NCBI RefSeq assembly: GCF_003945235.1
Contig: NZ_RSDW01000001.1
Coordinates: 4,770,001 to 4,802,000 of the forward strand
Direction of reading: 5' to 3'
Source of the DNA: Edaphobacter aggregans
GTDB lineage: Bacteria > Acidobacteriota > Terriglobia > Terriglobales > Acidobacteriaceae
DNA: 32,000 bases
Part shown: positions 4,616-28,005 of the stretch, one piece after another
Layout: the number at the start of each line of letters is the position of its first letter
Position numbering within the stretch: position 1 is the first letter of the stretch
Program-made: the position numbers and the translations under genes
Notes under the pieces: model-generated
What the model was told of the DNA's origin: nothing
The model's database searches: none
What the model saw: only the letters and a program-made list of their open reading frames with translations

Positions 4616-5575
4616 TCAAACGCCCTGGTACACGAGCGCAATGAAGTTACTTGGATTCTGAAACAGGTTGCCCCACTCCGCGTCATAGCGCGCACTAGGC
4701 TTAGCCGCGATCACTTCGGGCAGGAGCTTACCTTGTTTCTTGAGAGCCGCAACCTTATCGCGAATATCAACCAAAACGTCTCGAAATAGGATCAGGTCGG
4801 CTTTGCCGCCCACGGCTCCATGCCCAGGAATCACGATCGTCTTGCTCGTCACCTTTGCGATGTTCGCTTCTGCCGCGCGTATCTGGCCGTCGATGCTTCC
4901 TCCGGTCCAGTAGTCGATAAAGGGGTAATCGCGGTTCCAGAAGGTGTCTCCCGTGTGGAGAATATCGGCCTCAGGAAAATGCACGGAGATATCCGAGTCC
5001 GTATGGGCAGGTAAGTAGTGCTTTAGCGTGAGAGTGGTGTTGTTGATATGCAGAGTGTGTTCGTCGTTGAAGACGGTGGAAGGAATCGCACCCGCCGGCG
5101 CGGCTGGGAAAGTGTACTGAAAGTTTCCTCCGACGAACGTGGCCTTGGAAAGATGTTTGCGCGTATTTTCGTGCGCCAGGATACTGGCCCCGGCTTCATG
5201 GACCCACTCGTTGCCACCAGTATGATCGAAATGCCAGTGGGTGTTGATCAGTTGTTTGATCGGATCCGCGTTGATGCTTGCGAGGGCTTTCGAGACGTTT
5301 GGACGTGCGGTGACGATCTCCGCATCCACCACCAGCTTTCCGTCAGGGCCTGTCAGAACGGCGATATTTCCACCAGCGCCTAAAAGGATACTGACGTTGC
5401 GTCGAAGGTTTTGAATCGTGACCTTTGCTGTTGCAGCTTCCTTGAAGGCACCCGGAACGATGCTACTTGTCTGGGCGATCAGGTGTCTTGGAGCAAGGCA
5501 AGCCGCGGCGACCGTCAGGCCTCCAGCAGTAAGAAACTGACGGCGTGAAATGTCGAGTGACGCCTCGGGAAGCAT
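4616..5575 (-). CDS. MBL-fold metallo-hydrolase, Tat-exported
   Basis: A 319-aa ORF with a twin-arginine leader (DISRRQFLTAGGLTVAAA). It carries the HxHxDH motif (HWHFDHTGGN) and later His/Asp ligands (PAHTDSD, IPGHG). Confidence 0.85.
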   Translation of the reverse strand: MLPEASLDISRRQFLTAGGLTVAAACLAPRHLIAQTSSIVPGAFKEAATAKVTIQNLRRNVSILLGAGGNIAVLTGPDGKLVVDAEIVTARPNVSKALASINADPIKQLINTHWHFDHTGGNEWVHEAGASILAHENTRKHLSKATFVGGNFQYTFPAAPAGAIPSTVFNDEHTLHINNTTLTLKHYLPAHTDSDISVHFPEADILHTGDTFWNRDYPFIDYWTGGSIDGQIRAAEANIAKVTSKTIVIPGHGAVGGKADLILFRDVLVDIRDKVAALKKQGKLLPEVIAAKPSARYDAEWGNLFQNPSNFIALVYQGV

Positions 5576-5887
5576 CCTAAGATTCTCCTATCGCTTTCGC
5601 CTTGGATTTAGAGCACATCTTTGGCTTTTCCGTCTAAATCCGGAACAAAATCATACACCGACTCTTCACCAAATGATGAAATGATGCTAATTGCTGTGGC
5701 GGAAGCTGCCACACCCACGCATATGGCGTTTTTCTTGAAATGATACTGGATTGTCGAACTTTCGCTTTCGAGCGTTTGGCTCCCTCGAAGCGCTAATATG
5801 TACAGATTTCCACATCGGCACGCGATAGCGCTCATAGAGAAGGGCCCTGCAGGAATCAGCCGTTGCCCATGGATCAAGGAGGTATTG

Positions 5888-15180: not shown

Positions 15181-16117
15181 ATGACGAGCGAGCTCATTTT
15201 GGCGCCTGTACCACCTGAAAACAGGGAAGGGGAGCCCCTGACCCTCACCCCGGCCCAGACTGTGCTGCGCAAGATGGTCCTCGACACCGTACCGTCGCCG
15301 CACTCCAAGCGCAACTACGGGAAAGCCCTCGACGACCTCTTCGCCTTCTGTGCCAGCCGACCTCTCTCCCGGTCCTTATTAATGGAGTGGCAGGCGGGCA
15401 TGGAGCCACTCTCGCCCTCCACTATAAATGTCCGGCTCTCGGCGGTGCGGAAGTCGGTGGGCGAGGCCAGGCGGAACAACATGATCGGATCGGAGGAGGC
15501 GGCCAGCCTGACCGACATCCCCAACATCCGGCAGAAGGGAACCCGGCTGGGGAACTGGCTGACCCGCGAGCAGGCCAAGGAGCTGCTGGCCGTCCCCGAC
15601 CGCTCGACGCTCAAGGGCAAACGCGACTACGTCATCCTGGCGCTTCTTGTTGGCTGCGCCCTGAGGCGGAACGAACTGGCCGAGCTTGACGTCGCGACCA
15701 TCCAACAAAGGGAGGGGCGCTGGGTCCTGGCCGACCTGGAGGGCAAAGGCCGCCGCATCCGCACCGTTGCTGTCCCGATCTGGGTCCAAGCAGGGCATCA
15801 ACGCGTGGATGACCGCGGCCGGCATCGAAGACGGACGGCTGTTGCGGTCGGTTTCGAAGAGCGGGAAGGTCAATCGCGACACCTTGAGCGACTGGGCGGT
15901 CTGGTCGGTAGTTGAACAGTCATCCAAGCAAATCGGAATCGAACGCTTCGGTGCCCACGACCTCCGCCGTACCTGCGCCAAACTCTGCCGCAAGAATGGC
16001 GGGGATCTGGAGCAGATCAAGTTCCTACTGGGACACTCCTCCATCCAGACGACCGAGCGGTACCTGGGATCGGAGCAGGATATCGAGATCGCGGTGAACG
16101 ACAACCTGGGGCTGTAG
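15181..16117 (+). pseudogene. tyrosine recombinase/integrase with a single-base frameshift
   Basis: Two ORFs (15181..15915 and 15686..16117) join into one integrase if the C at 15787 is skipped: ...GRRIRTVAVPIWV|KQGINAWMTAAGIEDGRLL.... All catalytic motifs are intact: Arg in GCALRRNEL, HxxR in AHDLRRT, and His/Tyr in LLGHSSIQTTERY. Confidence 0.85.
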
Positions 16118-22616: not shown

Positions 22617-22755
22617 TCCTGCTGCGAAGATACGTCCGGCTCAATTGGCGATAACAGTCAGTATGGAGTGACCGGCGCCGATGCGCTGATCGTGGTTTAG
22701 GCTGTGTGTTTATTAGGGCACGCAGTTCAGAGCCACAGGCGGAAGGGAGCCGGTC

Positions 22756-23682
22756 ATGAAGGAGAAGGTACGATTTATAGGTTTGGATGTCCATGCCGAG
22801 ACCATCGCCGTAGCGATAGCCGAACCGGATGGTGAAGTACGGAGTCTGGGAACGATTCCGAACCGTAGCGAGTCGCTCCGCAAGCTGGTTAGGAAGCTTG
22901 GTCCAGCAGAGAAGTTGAGAGCCTGTTATGAGGCAGGACCGACGGGCTACGTGGTGTATTGGCAACTGACAGAACTGGGTGTACCGTGCGAGGTGGTAGC
23001 GCCTACTCTGGTACCGGTTAAAGCGGGTGATCGAGTAAAGACGGATCGGCGAGATGCGGAGAAGTTGGCACGCTGCTACCGATCTGGAGATCTGACAGCG
23101 GTATGGGTTCCGGACGAAGGTTCCGAGGCCTTACGCGATCTCGTGCGTGCCCGCGAAGCAGCCAAACAGGATCAGATGCGAGCGCGGCATCGGTTGAGCA
23201 AGTTTCTTCTTCGCTCCGGCCAGCGTCCACCAACCGGAGTTCGACCATGGACACGCCCCTATCTGATCTGGATCGCGCAGCTACGTTTCACACAGATCGC
23301 CCAGGAATCCACGCGACAGGATTACCTGCACGAGGTCGAGCACATGCGGGAACGGGTAGCGCGTCTGGAGCAAGCCATCACGGAAGCGGTGAAGCTGGCC
23401 TCCCCCGCGTTGCAGCAAGTCATTAACGATCTGCAGGCACTGCGCGGTATCGCGGATATCTCAGCTGTAACCATTGCGACCGAGCTGGGCCAGGTATCCC
23501 GTTTTCACAGTGCCCGGCAACTGATGGGCTATTGCGGTGCTGTGCCCAGCGAAGACTCCAGTGGCAAGCGAACCAGACGCGGTGGCATCACTAAAACCGG
23601 CAACGCGCATTTGCGACGAATCGTTGTCGAAGCAGCCTGGAGCTGTCGGACTGCACTCAAATCCCGGAATTTCGGATTTTGA
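22756..23682 (+). pseudogene. IS110-family DEDD transposase, 3'-truncated by transposon insertion
   Basis: The sequence MKEKVRFIGLDVHAETIAVAI...CYEAGPTGY...VKTDRRDAEKLA...ALRGIADISAVTIATELG...GITKTGNAHLRRIVVEAAWS is typical IS110. Homology stops after codon 296 (23643), and the last 12 codons (CRTALKSRNFGF*) are read from the transposon's terminal repeat. The usual C-terminal segment after the AAW motif is missing. Confidence 0.85.
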
Positions 23683-23747
23683 TCTCATTTTCTGCACTCA
23701 AATCCCGGAATTCAAGACACTCTATGTACTCTAATCCCGGACGAAAG
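23644..23747. repeat. transposon left (tniQ-proximal) end with three transposase-binding-type repeats
   Basis: The repeats are ctgcactcaaatcccggaatttcgg (23651-23675), ctgcactcaaatcccggaattcaag (23692-23716) and gtactctaatcccggacgaaag (23726-23747), all in the same orientation. Confidence 0.8.
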
Positions 23748-24787
23748 AACCTGCCCCGGAACGGTGAAGATTGTGAACGACTGCGCACGTGTTGATTGAG
23801 TGCGGAGGCGAGACGTCGACGCAAAGCAGCTGGCCAGCGCTGGCTTGAGGTCTCGATCAAGCCTGCCTCCCGGTGCGAAAGAAGCGCTAGAACGCGGAGC
23901 CAGAGAACGCAACCATTTCGAAGTCTGTTTTGTTTTCCTCTTGGTACGGAGCCCGGAAGTGCATCCATGATGAGTGATCCGATGATTGTAAGAATCTCGG
24001 TTCTGAAAGCGAAATGCAGATTCCGGGGATCTGTGGATTGGATGGACAGCTCGTGGCTCGGGTACCAGGCGAGGAGCTGGAGAAGGTCTTCTACGAAGCA
24101 ACGAAGCTGTGTCCCAGTGGCTGCTCCCAGCAATGCAGCGTCAGGATTGGCGGCGCGCAGAGCTGCACGATAGATCTGTTCGACGAAGAGTTGCGCTCCG
24201 GCAATCTGCCGCTGACGGGAGCTTGAAGTGGTGAAAGTCAGTTTTGCTCCGCAGCTCCAGCAGAGGACTGGCGCGACGGCGGGAGACGAGCCGAATGGTA
24301 GCGGGTTGTCTTCGCCACACGTAGGACAACCGTGTCGTAGCGGGCTCTTGTGGATATGACATCGCAGCAGGGCGGGGAAGGCCCACTCCCAACGGACGTG
24401 CACATAGGCTTGAAGCGAGATGCAGGGTGGACAAAAGGCATAGCCCGTCCGCAGTCTACGAAGCCGCTGGGATCGATCGGAGACGCCCCAACGCAGGAGA
24501 AGCGCACGTTCCGATTGCGGCAAACGCTTCCGGAGATCAAGTCGACCAAGGCTGCTTACAGACGTTCTAGAGAATGTTGCCATAGCGTTCAAGAACGCGA
24601 GCGGGAGGCCCCAGTCGAGCGAACTAAGACTTGGGAGATCTGAATGGCGACATTGGAACCCGATCATGAGTTCTTCAGGTGATACGCAGTTTGCATGAGC
24701 GATGCGGAGTACCCATGACGAAAATAGCTCGTTTGGGAGCGGTCTCGGAGCAAAGGGCAGTTGAGATGGCGCGGATGCCGTTTTCAT
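23657..24787 (-). CDS. tniQ: TniQ family transposition target-selection protein
   Basis: A 376-aa ORF. The N-terminal TniQ domain is PLPNELFSSWVLRIAHANCVSPEEL. Cys clusters follow (FCPPCIS...CPTCGEDN...CWSCG). Its start overlaps the tniB stop (ATGA). The last ~30 codons run through the terminal repeats. Confidence 0.85.
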   Translation of the reverse strand: MKTASAPSQLPFAPRPLPNELFSSWVLRIAHANCVSPEELMIGFQCRHSDLPSLSSLDWGLPLAFLNAMATFSRTSVSSLGRLDLRKRLPQSERALLLRWGVSDRSQRLRRLRTGYAFCPPCISLQAYVHVRWEWAFPALLRCHIHKSPLRHGCPTCGEDNPLPFGSSPAVAPVLCWSCGAKLTFTTSSSRQRQIAGAQLFVEQIYRAALRAANPDAALLGAATGTQLRCFVEDLLQLLAWYPSHELSIQSTDPRNLHFAFRTEILTIIGSLIMDALPGSVPRGKQNRLRNGCVLWLRVLALLSHREAGLIETSSQRWPAALRRRLASALNQHVRSRSQSSPFRGRFFRPGLEYIECLEFRDLSAENEIKIRNSGI

Positions 24788-25698
24788 CGTGCGGAGACGC
24801 GCCGGTTACGGCGGTCAGCAATCGAGACTAGAGATCCTGTGACTAGATCGTCTTTGAGTAGGCTAAGGCTGATGTGCTCCTGCCCGCTGTGAATCGCTTC
24901 TGTCGCCGCTGTTTCGATTAGCCGACAGATGCGCACAAGCACTCCTTCACTGAGACTTAGAATTCGCTGATGTACTTTGGGATCGCGGAACTCGGATGGT
25001 AGCCGCAGTGGAAGTATGGACTCAAAACTTAGAAGCAACTGCTGAAAGCTGGAATCGTTCTCCCAGGCTGGCAGTTCCGCCGCCTCGAATCGATCGGCAA
25101 GTTGCTGGTCAGTCATGAGCGCTTGCTTCGCTTCGTGAGTTCCCGCACAGACCAATGGCAGTCGCAGATCGTTGGCGAGAAAGCGGATCGAGTTGAGCAG
25201 TATTCGCTGTTCGCGATAGGTGCCGGCGAGAACCGAATGGATCTCGTCGATCACCAGTAGCCGCACTTCAAGTTGACGCGCCAGTGCGCGAATGCGGTGG
25301 CGTAAGGTTGTCACGCTTGTGCCGTGAGTGAAGATCCCGCCCATCGCCGCCAGGATCTCTTCGTAGAGATCACGTTCGCTTGGTGAGGGAGGCATCTGGA
25401 TCGAGACCACAGGAAGTCGGGTTCTTCCAAGCTTTTTGTCGAAGTGAGTTCGATTGTCGCGCAAGAACTTCTGGATGATGCGAGTCTTGCCCATACCAGT
25501 CGAGCCGTAGAGGACGAGGCACGGCATACGGTCGCGTGGAGGGTAGTCGACCAAATCCATCAAGCGTTCCAGAATACGTTCGGCACGAGGATATTGAATC
25601 CAGCGCTCCTGACGTAGCCAATGAATACGTTCAGTATCTGACAGCAGGGCCGCTTCGCGGCAAGGAGGTTGGAGGTGCCCCAGTTCGCTGACGGTCAT
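24784..25698 (-). CDS. tniB: TniB AAA+ ATPase (TnsC-like transposition regulator)
   Basis: The ORF track gives 24784..25710. I prefer ATG 25698 (MTVSELGHLQPP...), which lies 5 nt after GGGAG and just past the tniA stop. The protein carries Walker A (LYGSTGMGKT), Walker B (LLVIDEIH) and the N-terminal ERIHWLRQERWIQYPRA typical of TniB. Confidence 0.85.
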   Translation of the reverse strand: MTVSELGHLQPPCREAALLSDTERIHWLRQERWIQYPRAERILERLMDLVDYPPRDRMPCLVLYGSTGMGKTRIIQKFLRDNRTHFDKKLGRTRLPVVSIQMPPSPSERDLYEEILAAMGGIFTHGTSVTTLRHRIRALARQLEVRLLVIDEIHSVLAGTYREQRILLNSIRFLANDLRLPLVCAGTHEAKQALMTDQQLADRFEAAELPAWENDSSFQQLLLSFESILPLRLPSEFRDPKVHQRILSLSEGVLVRICRLIETAATEAIHSGQEHISLSLLKDDLVTGSLVSIADRRNRRVSAR

Positions 25699-25700
25699 TC

Positions 25701-27338
25701 TTACTCCCAAATCTCGACCGGAAAAGGTTTGATTTCGGTGGGACGAGCTTCGCTTCTTCGAGGCTCGAAGGAGACCGGAGAGGGTTCTGCTGTCGAGGGT
25801 AATTTCGCTTGCCGGCGGCGCTGTTTGGCTAGCGAACCAGCCTGCCGAACAAGCTGTCGCTGCTCCAGGATGTTCGCGAAGATGGCCTCTTCCGTGTTCA
25901 TCCGTCGCCCGCTTTCTCGTGCTTGCTTATTGGCCGACTCTATCTCCCAAAGCGCGATTGGAGGCTGCCGCAGATCGGCGTATGGAACGGGCCAGTGCCG
26001 TCCGTTCGGGTCTTGCACATAGATTCGCGACAAATTCCGTGGGTCGTACTTAACCAACAGCGGATCCTTCAACCGTCCGGCCCATGGGCTGAGCACATTG
26101 TCCCAATAGCGGATGTTGTAAAAATGAATGCCGTCTCTACGAATCTGTCTTGGGACCGCGGGCAGAAAGTTGAGAAAGAACTCCGTTTCGTCGAGCGGGT
26201 CCCGCAGCGACGACGACTTCGTTTGTTCCACCTCCGCTTGCCATGCCGCGAGAGGAGTCGTGCCGAGAGCGGAATGAGTTGAGAGATGGTAGACGCCAGC
26301 GATCTGAAGCGCCAGCCACCGCTCGAACTCTGGTAGCGTCAACGTTGCCCGAGCCTCCGACGCATAAGAACCCTTCTCGACGACATTGGAGAACGTCGTG
26401 CCTGGCAAGAGATGGACTGCCCCCATCGTCGTCCCAATCAACCGCTCGATGTGGCCTCCGAAGTGCGGCCGCCCAGGCGGACGGTGCTCCAGACGGATGC
26501 CATACTCCTGGCACCCCCGAACCAACGCTTCGGCATAAAACTCCTTGGCGTTGTCGACGTGAATCGTTCGCGGGAGGCCATGGACAGGCCATTCGAGTGT
26601 CTGGAGCTCGCGGTCGGCCAACCAACACGTCTTCGGGAGAACAGCTTGGGACAGCGCTAAAGAAACAGATATCGTCGAAGGCGACCAGAGAGAAACGTGA
26701 AAGCCCGCAACCATTCGTGTCCGCACATCGATCGCAAGCGTAAGCCACGGACGCCCGATCGGGAGCCGCTTGTGTTGGTCGACCACGATGATGTCCACCG
26801 GTGTATGGTCGATCTGCAAAAGTTCCATCGGGTGTTCGGGCTGCAAGGTTGAGATCGCAACGGGCCCTAGCAGTTCTCGGGCCTTCTTGCCACCCTCGCG
26901 CTTTGCGGTCGCCAACCGAAGGTCTAGCGCCTCAACCCGGCATACTACGGTGCGATAGTTCGGAGGTGGCATTCGTTGTTCGGCGAAGCGGCGACGAACC
27001 TCGAGCATAAGTGCCGACAGCCGCGGCCGTTCCGGCTTCAAATAAAACTCATGGATGCACGCGCTCAGCAATTGCTCGCGGTCCGCGCCAAGAAGCGGTA
27101 CTTTGGATTCGTGGCCCCGCTTGCCTGGAAGTAAAGACGAGGTTTGGGACCGTTGGCGGTAGCGCCTGAGCAAGTCGTAAACGACGCTCCGTCCTAGGCC
27201 GAGTTCCCGTGCGGCCTCTCCGACACGTTGGGCGCCGGGCCTTGATTGAGCGGCCAACGGGCCGATCACCGACTCGCGCTTCAAAGCCACGAGCCAGTCC
27301 GCTTCCCCCGCGGCTTCCAAGTTGCGCCACTTTTGCAT
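25701..27338 (-). CDS. tniA: TniA DDE transposase (TnsB/MuA-like)
   Basis: A 545-aa ORF with an N-terminal HTH (GEAARELGLGRSVVYDLLRRY). The DDE triad is LQIDHTPVD, TIHVDNAKEF and, 36 residues later, GGHIERL (D-x35-E spacing). Confidence 0.9.
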   Translation of the reverse strand: MQKWRNLEAAGEADWLVALKRESVIGPLAAQSRPGAQRVGEAARELGLGRSVVYDLLRRYRQRSQTSSLLPGKRGHESKVPLLGADREQLLSACIHEFYLKPERPRLSALMLEVRRRFAEQRMPPPNYRTVVCRVEALDLRLATAKREGGKKARELLGPVAISTLQPEHPMELLQIDHTPVDIIVVDQHKRLPIGRPWLTLAIDVRTRMVAGFHVSLWSPSTISVSLALSQAVLPKTCWLADRELQTLEWPVHGLPRTIHVDNAKEFYAEALVRGCQEYGIRLEHRPPGRPHFGGHIERLIGTTMGAVHLLPGTTFSNVVEKGSYASEARATLTLPEFERWLALQIAGVYHLSTHSALGTTPLAAWQAEVEQTKSSSLRDPLDETEFFLNFLPAVPRQIRRDGIHFYNIRYWDNVLSPWAGRLKDPLLVKYDPRNLSRIYVQDPNGRHWPVPYADLRQPPIALWEIESANKQARESGRRMNTEEAIFANILEQRQLVRQAGSLAKQRRRQAKLPSTAEPSPVSFEPRRSEARPTEIKPFPVEIWE

Positions 27339-27485
27339 TCAAATCCCGGACAAACTTTCGCCCGAACTTCGTCCGGGATTTGAGTGCAACATTCCGGGAT
27401 TTCAATGCCGTAAAACTGCAGTGAATTATCGGAAAACGATTGATTACAAAAGGCCGATATTCCGGGATTTGAGTGCAGCGTGACA
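27334..27485. repeat. transposon right (tniA-proximal) end with four copies of the same motif
   Basis: Three copies are inverted relative to the left end: gtccgggatttgagtgcaac (27371-27390), attccgggatttcaatgccg (27391-27410) and ccgatattccgggatttgagtgcagcgtgaca (27454-27485). One copy has the opposite orientation: tgcattcaaatcccggacaaa (27334-27354), which overlaps the tniA start codon. Confidence 0.8.
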
Positions 27486-28005
27486 GTTGGGCGAACCGAC
27501 GATGGCTGGCCGATGGTCCGGCGACACGCGGACTGCAATCATGTCCTTCTCGATGTACTCACCGAAATGAATGCCAGCATCGAAGCCGTCCGCGACGATG
27601 TCCCGCCGGCTGTCATCCGTTGTTACGTCGAGTACGATCTCTGGATATTCCTTGTGCAACCTGCCCAACTTTGGCGCGAGGACAGATGACACTGCGAGAC
27701 GCGGGAGTAGTAAACGCAAACGTCCCGCTGCTCTGTGCGTCTGGCCGGATATCTGGTCGAGCGTTTCCTCGACTTCGGTGAGTGCGGGTTTCAGGCGAGC
27801 GAGAAGTCGCTCTCCGGCTTCGGTCAGCGCAACACTCCTGGTGGTACGCGCAAGCAAACGGACGCCCACTTCTTCTTCAAGCGCCCGCATGGCGTGACTC
27901 ACGGCTGAAGGCGAAACGCCTTGGCGCTTCGCAGCTCGCGTAAAGCTACGTTCTTCGGCAATGACAAGGAACGTGGCGAGAGATCTGAGATCGCTAGGCC
28001 AGCAT
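27486..28005 (-). pseudogene. LysR-type transcriptional regulator, 5' frameshift and 3' truncation by the transposon
   Basis: The translation is DLRSLATFLVIAEERSFTRAAKRQGVSPSAVSHAMRALEEEVGVRLLARTTRSVALTEAGERLL...RLRLLLP...EYPEIVLDVTTDD...IAVRVSPDHRPAIVGSPN. It then reads into the transposon end (CHAALKSRNIGLL*). Only about 173 of the roughly 300 expected codons remain. The only ATG (rc 28003-28005) gives M-L-A-stop and is out of frame by one base (extra base at 27996). Confidence 0.8.

Follow-up and report, generated by a model that had tools for sequence, protein, structure and literature searches.

How does a complete transposon come to lie between the remains of two unrelated genes, with no target-site duplication around it and with the missing part of neither gene present elsewhere in the genome? 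The question is raised by a 3,842-bp element carrying tniA, tniB, and tniQ (a TniABQ element) in Edaphobacter aggregans, at positions 23644 to 27485 of a 32,000-nucleotide stretch of the genome (contig NZ_RSDW01000001.1, positions 4,770,001 to 4,802,000; hereafter the window), whose first bases are TGTC and whose last are GACA. The best reading of the locus, to which we give a probability of roughly 0.7, is replicative transposition without resolution of the product, followed by deletion of adjacent DNA. The element itself is intact and insertion-sequence-like, and it belongs to a branch of the Tn5053/Tn402 group (Tn7 superfamily) that has no resolvase, TnsA, or cargo.

Ends and gene content of the element

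The genes are on the minus strand, with the tniQ end at the left and the tniA end at the right, and the plus strand reads ...ctggagc/TGTCGGACTGCACTC... at the left junction (23644) and ...GAGTGCAGCGTGACA/gttggg... at the right (27485). An earlier reading of the window from its letters alone (the sequence-only reading) had described an imperfect TGTC...GACA inverted repeat with extra transposase-binding repeats, three at the tniQ end and four at the tniA end, and both descriptions hold. In a search for repeats, the ends pair over 38 nt as an imperfect inverted repeat with 84% complementarity (arms 23643-23680 and 27449-27486), and a 17-nt core (TGCACTCAAATCCCGGA) has seven matches in the 32-kb window at up to three mismatches, all of them within 150 bp of the element ends; shuffled sequences average 0.09 matches, and none of 100 shuffles reaches seven.

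These boundaries are proven to be the true ends by 99%-identical copies in five other sequence contexts (L098-L103), which diverge exactly there. A protein cluster 99% identical to TniA is encoded on seven metagenome contigs, of which three from soil (L098, L099, and L100) hold the 3,842-bp unit with 40 of 3,842 positions differing from the window copy, and the similarity between these and the window is lost exactly at TGTC and GACA. Two further contigs (L101 and L103) provide two more tniA-side flanks, each different, and the unit is present in at least four contexts besides the window. A larger element with its ends elsewhere, which the sequence-only reading had named as a way to be wrong, is excluded because the 99%-identical copies stop at TGTC and GACA. 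The host genome has a single full copy, that of the window, and a search for others found as the only other trace a decayed fragment of ∼280 bp of a related tniA end at C1:5078791-5079053 (∼5.0788 Mb).

Only tniA, tniB, and tniQ are present, with no cargo; neighboring genes overlap by 10 and 4 nt, leaving non-coding segments of 13 nt and 147 nt (160 bp in all). The TniA catalytic residues D186, D261, and E297 lie in conserved DDE contexts (QIDH, HVDNAKEF, and GGHIER), all intact, as are the TniB Walker A (GSTGMGKT) and Walker B (LLVIDE) motifs; tniB starts with TTG at 25710, or with ATG 12 nt downstream, as in Joint Genome Institute (JGI) gene calls on relatives. With transposition genes only and miniature end-only derivatives, the element is an insertion sequence by the operational definition.

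The absence of a resolvase and of TnsA, which the sequence-only reading had reported with the caveat that either might be encoded just outside, extends to the flanking DNA: antisense and neighboring open reading frames (ORFs) have no Pfam match, and no resolvase or TnsA gene is inside or beside the element, so a hidden one in those ORFs is rejected. The nearest serine recombinase gene (PF00239) is at least 680 kb away, and the only TnsA-like gene of the genome (PF08722) is at 4.207 Mb, 586 kb off, in a different Tn7-like element (C1:4207166-4210461) with TnsA-, TnsB-, and TniB-like genes. A distant TniA-like gene (26% identity) is at C1:5121212-5123508, divergent from an integrase gene closely paralogous to an integrase pseudogene in the window. 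The element has no Cas12k, CRISPR array, or trans-activating CRISPR RNA (tracrRNA); apart from 160 bp it is taken up by tniA, tniB, and tniQ, with no space for another gene.

Truncated flanking genes and loss of adjacent DNA

The five bases outside the ends differ, as had been noted (GGAGC at the left and GTTGG at the right), and shifting the boundaries yields no 5-bp duplication. At the left, the ORF of an IS110-family transposase (22756-23643) is cut by the tniQ end exactly after codon 296, and an intact, 99%-identical copy at C1:167807 runs on beyond the junction point as TATCGTCG... in protein and as TATCGTCGTCC... in DNA, for more than 250 bp. At the right, the remnant of a LysR-family gene corresponds to residues 3 to 173 of a 294-aa orthologue from two genomes of the same genus (81% and 79% identity) and is also frameshifted near its start. 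The two truncated ORFs read into the ends and acquire the near-identical tails CRTALKSRNFGF and CHAALKSRNIGLL, each closed by a stop codon, a trivial consequence of the symmetry of the inverted repeats.

Insertion sequences can themselves target transposon ends, as IS4321 and IS5075 do in the inverted repeats of Tn21. Insertion of IS110 into the end of this element is rejected, as the intact IS110 copy extends 250 bp or more past the junction. A further IS110 copy, 88% identical, is at 5.828 Mb. Directly beside the intact copy at 167807 is another LysR-family gene (C1:166917-167699), ∼30% identical to that in the window, which is possibly a coincidence, LysR genes being abundant.

The genome is complete, a single contig of 6.15 Mb, and contains neither an orphan 3' part of IS110 nor the C-terminal half of the LysR gene, as the sequence-only reading had supposed from the window; the only other full-length match to the LysR-family gene is a ∼50%-identical paralogue at 5.73 Mb. 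The absence of both halves argues that the flanks were joined by loss of DNA and not by inversion, and it supports the proposal, also made earlier, that an adjacent deletion or a recombination between copies followed insertion.

The two sides differ in character. The tniQ-side flank is accessory or mobile DNA throughout, forming an island (∼14.5-23.6 kb) with an integrase pseudogene, defense-type genes, an HExxH module, and the truncated IS110; it starts near 14.5 kb with a frameshifted tyrosine integrase gene (15199-16117). The tniA-side flank is a chromosomal regulator gene with a divergent operon. Genes downstream of the LysR orthologues in the two same-genus genomes have no counterpart in the host genome, with which their synteny is poor. 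Among the sequences lost were probably the right side of the island and probably also some chromosomal genes downstream of LysR. In three metagenome contigs (L173, L176, and L178), a related element is present as a truncated tniQ end, 25 bp past the stop codon of a homologue of the window integrase, with 87% DNA identity of the integrase genes measured in L173. The features of the locus are collected in Table 1.

Table 1. Positions of the element, its parts, the flanking genes, and related loci (window coordinates unless a locus is named)
Feature	Position	Strand	Basis or remark
Complete TniABQ element, 3,842 bp	23644..27485	-	Boundaries from 99%-identical copies in other contexts
Terminal inverted repeat, tniQ end, TGTCGGACTGCACTCAAATCCCGGAATTTCGGATTTT	23644..23680	+	38-nt pair, 84% complementary
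Terminal inverted repeat, tniA end, TGTCACGCTGCACTCAAATCCCGGAATATCGGCCTTT on - strand	27449..27485	-	Other arm of the 38-nt pair
Three direct 17-nt repeats, presumed TniA-binding, tniQ end	23652-23668, 23693-23709, 23725-23741	+	Core matches
Three inward-facing 17-nt repeats, tniA end	27372-27388, 27393-27409, 27461-27477	-	Core matches
Fourth tniA-end 17-nt repeat, opposite orientation, overlapping the tniA start codon	27334-27350	+	Core match
tniQ, 376-aa target-selector homologue with CxxC zinc-ribbon motifs	23657..24787	-	PF06527
tniB, AAA+ regulator of TnsC type, 304-308 aa	24784..25710	-	PF05621, E = 1.6e-66
tniA, 545-aa DDE transposase of TnsB/MuA type	25701..27338	-	Pfam rve and Mu-transpos_C
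5' part of IS110-family element	22641..23643	+	PF01548 and PF02371; intact 99%-identical copy at C1:167807-169100
LysR-family regulator, N-terminal 173 codons, cut by the tniA end	27486..27998	-	HTH_1 and LysR_substrate
Fixed-site Rhodobacterales loci	L024, L034, L039, L043, L058, and ∼25 others		Empty sites L194-L196
Miniature-derivative loci	L105, L119, L121/L124/L156, L130, L133, L137, L139, L140, L142, L149, L168, L170-L172, L179		

Target duplications and flank consensus in related copies

The missing duplication noted by the sequence-only reading is real, but it is not a peculiarity of this copy. Among the 34 distinct paired copies of the acidobacterial clade, which comprise full-length elements and miniature end-only derivatives found by end pattern in metagenomes, none has matching 5-bp flanks, and the window copy in this respect merely shares a trait of its entire clade. 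Across a partly overlapping set of 39 relatives with delimited ends (seven copies are in both sets), three have identical 5-bp flanks (GCGGC, CGGGC, and CCCGG) where ∼0.04 would be expected by chance, and a 5-bp duplication is therefore made at least sometimes. Two others of the 39 have reverse-complementary 5-bp flanks, also above chance (GCCAT/ATGGC in L076, 466-4371, and GCAGG/CCTGC in L087, 2957-6495), which may reflect a palindromic target consensus.

Such a consensus is seen in the flanks of 122 distinct ends, where the five bases outside the element, read inward, follow the palindrome sCNGs, with C in 64% at position -4 and G in 60% at position -2, and where composition is at background from position -6 outward. 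The symmetry is centered on -3 from each end, which points to a 5-bp stagger; blunt insertion would center it on the junction, and blunt, duplication-free integration is rejected on this ground. On this pattern, each flank is best read as one side of a genuine target duplication, with the flanks at either end of a given copy apparently coming from different events, and the consensus serves to separate unresolved replicative products from non-canonical chemistry.

Targets of the acidobacterial clade are diverse: ORFs within 700 bp of 119 distinct ends match 70 Pfam families, and integrases account for only 4 of 149 ORFs. Several insertions are in other mobile elements, including IS110 in the window, an IS5-like gene (L172), and a Tn3-family tnpA gene (L111), and these may simply reflect tolerance. 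In L111 (5941-9777), the tnpA gene is truncated by a full-length 3,837-bp relative and its remainder is not on the other flank, so that these flanks, too, are non-contiguous.

The miniature derivatives of soil metagenomes consist of the two ends only, are mostly 286 to 288 bp long (others are 322, 356, and 409 bp), and have no 5-bp duplication in any instance. Two of them bracket a fragment of a DUF1016/YhcG-type gene in L119. In L146, a miniature element (5445-5766) has flanks of which ∼120 nt at the left and ∼170 nt at the right match, in inverted orientation, positions 4,812.8 kb and 4,781.6 kb of the host genome, which bracket the region studied here; the rest of that contig is not syntenic, and its interpretation as an inversion junction relative to the host genome was dropped because only ∼120 nt of the left flank matches.

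Rearrangements in relatives

Copies and relatives of the element elsewhere supply direct examples of the rearrangements expected from replicative transposition without resolution. L098 and L099 carry elements without a single difference between them and have a common tniA-side flank (3 differences in 207 nt), and their tniQ-side flanks are unrelated, which shows one-sided flank replacement in identical copies. A Vannielia genome (L038 and L045, on contig C111 of G280) contains two copies and no more, in direct orientation and separated by 133 kb, in the order TCCAT-element-TGGGG...TGGGG-element-GCGCA, and the segment that they bracket is plasmid-like. When the inner flanks are joined over a single TGGGG, an in-frame N-terminus of an integrase is recovered. 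Replication and partition genes of two replicons are on the two sides: RepC and an integrase are coded outside one copy, and ParA, a resolvase, and an integrase body just inside the other. The arrangement identifies the pair as an unresolved cointegrate of two replicons with a 5-bp duplication. The outer flanks of the donor copy (TCCAT and GCGCA) are already mismatched.

A group of relatives in Rhodobacterales plasmids has TniA proteins 45 to 49% identical to that of the window and occupies one fixed site beside RepC, between a tyrosine-recombinase gene and DUF1403-ScpB, for which 137 plasmid records have the empty form (RepC, tyrosine recombinase, DUF1403, and ScpB). The insertion point is in or beside the recombinase start codon, and the tniA-end repeat (TGTCGTTCTTGTTCCAT) gives the recombinase an in-frame ATG, changing its N-terminus from MSENNEK... 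to MEQERQSENNEK.... Occupied sites have a left flank identical to that of an empty site and a right flank only ∼70% similar, and they are hybrids with flanks from two plasmid lineages. These alphaproteobacterial relatives home to the start of the plasmid recombinase gene, whereas the acidobacterial clade does not.

Proposed mechanism and alternative histories

With roles assigned from homology, TniA would bind the seven 17-nt repeats at both ends, nick the 3' ends after ...GACA, and join them to the target across a 5-bp stagger, with TniB (TnsC-like) and TniQ (TnsD-like) licensing the target. Without TnsA, the 5' strands should stay on the donor and transposition should be replicative, and without TniR and res the products should not be resolved site-specifically. 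Transposition between molecules would then yield a cointegrate, and within one chromosome a deletion or an inversion, and after replication of the Shapiro type each copy would have one old and one new junction. At this locus, the element would first have entered one of the two genes, IS110 or LysR, and an intramolecular replicative event into the other would have excised the interval as a circle that then disappeared; recombination with a short-lived second copy would give an equal outcome. What remained would be one copy with unrelated flanks and no duplication, with the 3' part of IS110 and the C-terminal half of LysR gone. Current activity, the order of these events, and the size of the deletion are what we infer from sequence; three observations argue for recent activity in the lineage, namely that the motifs are intact, that copies elsewhere are 99% identical, and that the elements of L098 and L099 do not differ at all.

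Several points weigh against this history. The empty site of the window copy was not recovered in right-flank DNA searches of 31 relatives, which returned only LysR orthologues (69 to 73% identity) in non-syntenic contexts. The window flanks, CCAAC and GGAGC when read inward, match sCNGs only partly, and the evidence from cointegrates and empty sites comes from the relatives with TniA only 45 to 49% identical to that of the window. The host has a single copy, and the element is uncommon in the family: of 251 genomes searched, only 3 contained its end pattern, each at one or two sites. Finally, the near absence of duplication-flanked copies, including among the ∼287-bp miniatures, is more extreme than a simple model predicts: RecA recombination between the 3.8-kb copies of a cointegrate should fairly often restore simple insertions flanked by duplications. 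A tentative extension, which we consider possible but doubtful, is that the whole clade never resolves its products and that practically every transposition, even of the ∼287-bp miniatures, leaves a replicon fusion, an inversion, or a deletion in place of a simple insertion. If so, genome rearrangement and replicon fusion would be the main biological effect of these elements, and a near-total lack of duplications despite a 5-bp consensus would be their diagnostic signature.

The contrast between the two flanks of the window copy suggests another history, in which the element was brought in by a foreign replicon, itself joined to the LysR gene by replicative transposition, the left island is a remnant of the donor backbone, and a later deletion took the second copy together with the LysR C-terminal half. 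Unresolved cointegrates do occur in the family, and such a history would also be compatible with the lack of counterparts here to the genes downstream of the LysR orthologues. It nonetheless needs more events than an insertion and one intramolecular deletion, the island has no plasmid replication gene and the genome no second copy, and the IS110 need not be foreign, two other copies (99% and 88% identical) being resident in the chromosome; we regard it as unlikely.

Somewhat less likely again is that two direct, duplication-flanked copies, one in IS110 and one in LysR, lost the interval between them by homologous recombination, with no intramolecular transposition. The end product would be identical to that observed, and a repeat of 3.8 kb gives RecA ample homology, but two simple insertions with duplications are required, of a kind seen in 0 of the 34 paired copies of the clade, and the mismatched flanks of nearly all other copies would be left without explanation. 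This is a sub-variant of replicative transposition with adjacent deletion and is inseparable from it on this genome alone. Non-canonical integration, blunt or with the ends joined to separate targets, would make the lack of duplication intrinsic to the chemistry and agrees with the 0 of 34 matching flanks (short miniatures included) and with the inverted flanks of L076 and L087, but it is highly improbable given the flank palindrome centered on -3 and not on the junction, the perfect 5-bp duplications of three relatives and of the Vannielia cointegrate, and window flanks that are not contiguous in the intact IS110.

In the annotation of this genome, the element accounts for two pseudogenes and for the missing right-hand edge of a genomic island. 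Pipelines that demand target duplications would miss or mis-bound copies of this clade, which abounds among soil Acidobacteriota and on plasmids of Alphaproteobacteria. The window is a natural example of a Tn7/Tn5053-type machine without a 5'-cleaving nuclease and without a resolvase, and it appears to behave as a three-gene insertion sequence, with adjacent deletion here and replicon fusion in relatives.

Phylogenetic placement and relatives

Against solved TnsB structures, TniA matches the TnsB part of an artificial PseCAST TnsA-TnsB fusion chain (E = 3e-45), Tn6677 (1e-38), ShCAST (2e-37, over residues 36 to 541, nearly full length), and Tn7 (6e-20); TniB matches TnsC structures (VchTnsC, E = 2e-21), and a profile of 34 TniQ family members matches TnsD and TniQ chains in PDB. 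TniA is ∼40% identical to the Tn402 TniA of the class 1 integron tni module (residues 15 to 500, E = 4e-96). Thousands of matches at ∼40% in a plasmid search with TniA correspond to class 1 integron/Tn402 tni modules, one of which (L197) was checked, and a canonical tniA-tniB-tniQ-tniR element (L198) was also retrieved. A phylogenetic placement, of the kind that the sequence-only reading had proposed as a check, was made with a maximum-likelihood tree of TniA that had TnsA-bearing elements of the Tn6022 and Xanthomonas types as the outgroup; Tn402/Tn5053 form one clade, and all 36 relatives sampled from genomes, the window copy included, form another, which is sister to it and not inside it (support 98/96).

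The 39 relatives with delimited ends span 3.45 to 4.15 kb from TGTC to GACA (a 6.3-kb end pairing in L028 was set aside as a weak match), the third gene codes for TniQ in 33 of 34 relatives, and several assemblies hold 3.5- to 3.8-kb contigs consisting of the element alone. Hosts include Acidobacteriota, Verrucomicrobiota, Rhodobacterales, Sphingomonadales, Azospirillum, and others. The cargo-less, resolvase-less architecture described by the sequence-only reading is therefore real but not a one-off: judged from these sequences, the window element is a typical member of a large branch of that kind.

Literature searches found no paper describing or naming this clade. Benler et al. 2021 (PMC8649781) make the general remark that a resolvase, too, is missing from some Tn7-like elements without TnsA, and they suggest resolution in trans or by RecA. 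The parts and their logic are already known from Tn5053/Tn402, Tn7, and the cointegrate-forming type V-K CRISPR-associated transposons (CASTs); what is new here is the proof of the boundaries, the loss of both gene halves, the one-sided flank replacement, the miniature derivatives, and the 5-bp palindromic consensus.

Comparison with known systems

The closest known elements are those of the Tn5053/Tn402 group, the 'res-site hunters,' organized as tniA-tniB-tniQ-res-tniR. The window element shares with them the order of the first three genes, the TniB (PF05621) and TniQ (PF06527) families, ends that start with TGTC, several subterminal repeats of ∼20 bp, a 5-bp stagger, and the absence of TnsA, by which transposition is replicative. 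In its alphaproteobacterial relatives, the tniA end adjoins a divergent recombinase gene, as in the Tn5053-like element L198. It differs in having no tniR, res site, or cargo, and copies of its clade are almost never flanked by duplications. The acidobacterial clade also shows no preference for recombinase sites, the window copy being flanked by IS110 and LysR and not by a res site. We therefore set the element beside the Tn5053 family and not within it, as a separate sister clade without tniR, res, or flanking duplications.

Tn7 and the TnsA-bearing Tn7-like elements have in common with it the TnsB-, TnsC-, and TnsD/TniQ-type proteins, TGT...ACA termini, arrays of transposase-binding sites, and the 5-bp stagger, but the window element has no TnsA, and hence no cut-and-paste excision, and no TnsE, cargo, or evident attachment site. 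Whether it is called Tn7-like depends on the definition. A strict one, built on heteromeric TnsAB, leaves it out, there being no TnsA domain in or near the element, whereas a broad one includes it through a TnsB homologue adjoining a TnsC/TniB or TnsD/TniQ homologue, together with subterminal repeat arrays; Benler et al. 2021 (PMC8649781) ask for TnsB plus at least one other core gene.

By analogy and not homology, the element also resembles the IS26/IS6 family, which is cargo-less, forms cointegrates, has no resolvase, includes many copies without matching duplications, and generates adjacent deletions and inversions by intramolecular events. IS26 differs in its unrelated single-protein transposase and 8-bp duplication and in having no ATPase or target selector. 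A further comparison, by published descriptions only, is with Tn6049 of Cupriavidus metallidurans (PMC2864759, PMC4739549), a compact (∼3.5 kb), multi-copy transposon that also has TGT termini and in which every copy carries the same ATPase gene, named gspA by the authors; it differs in its reported 12-bp inverted repeats and 4-bp direct repeats.

Type V-K CASTs (TnsB-TnsC-TniQ-Cas12k) are naturally without TnsA and form cointegrates, as proposed for the element described here. It differs from them in having no Cas12k, CRISPR array, guide RNA, or cargo and in being ten times smaller. To transposon biology, and to the building of tools from TnsA-less systems such as these, it contributes a minimal set of TnsB, TnsC, and TniQ that forms cointegrates naturally and accepts a wide range of targets.

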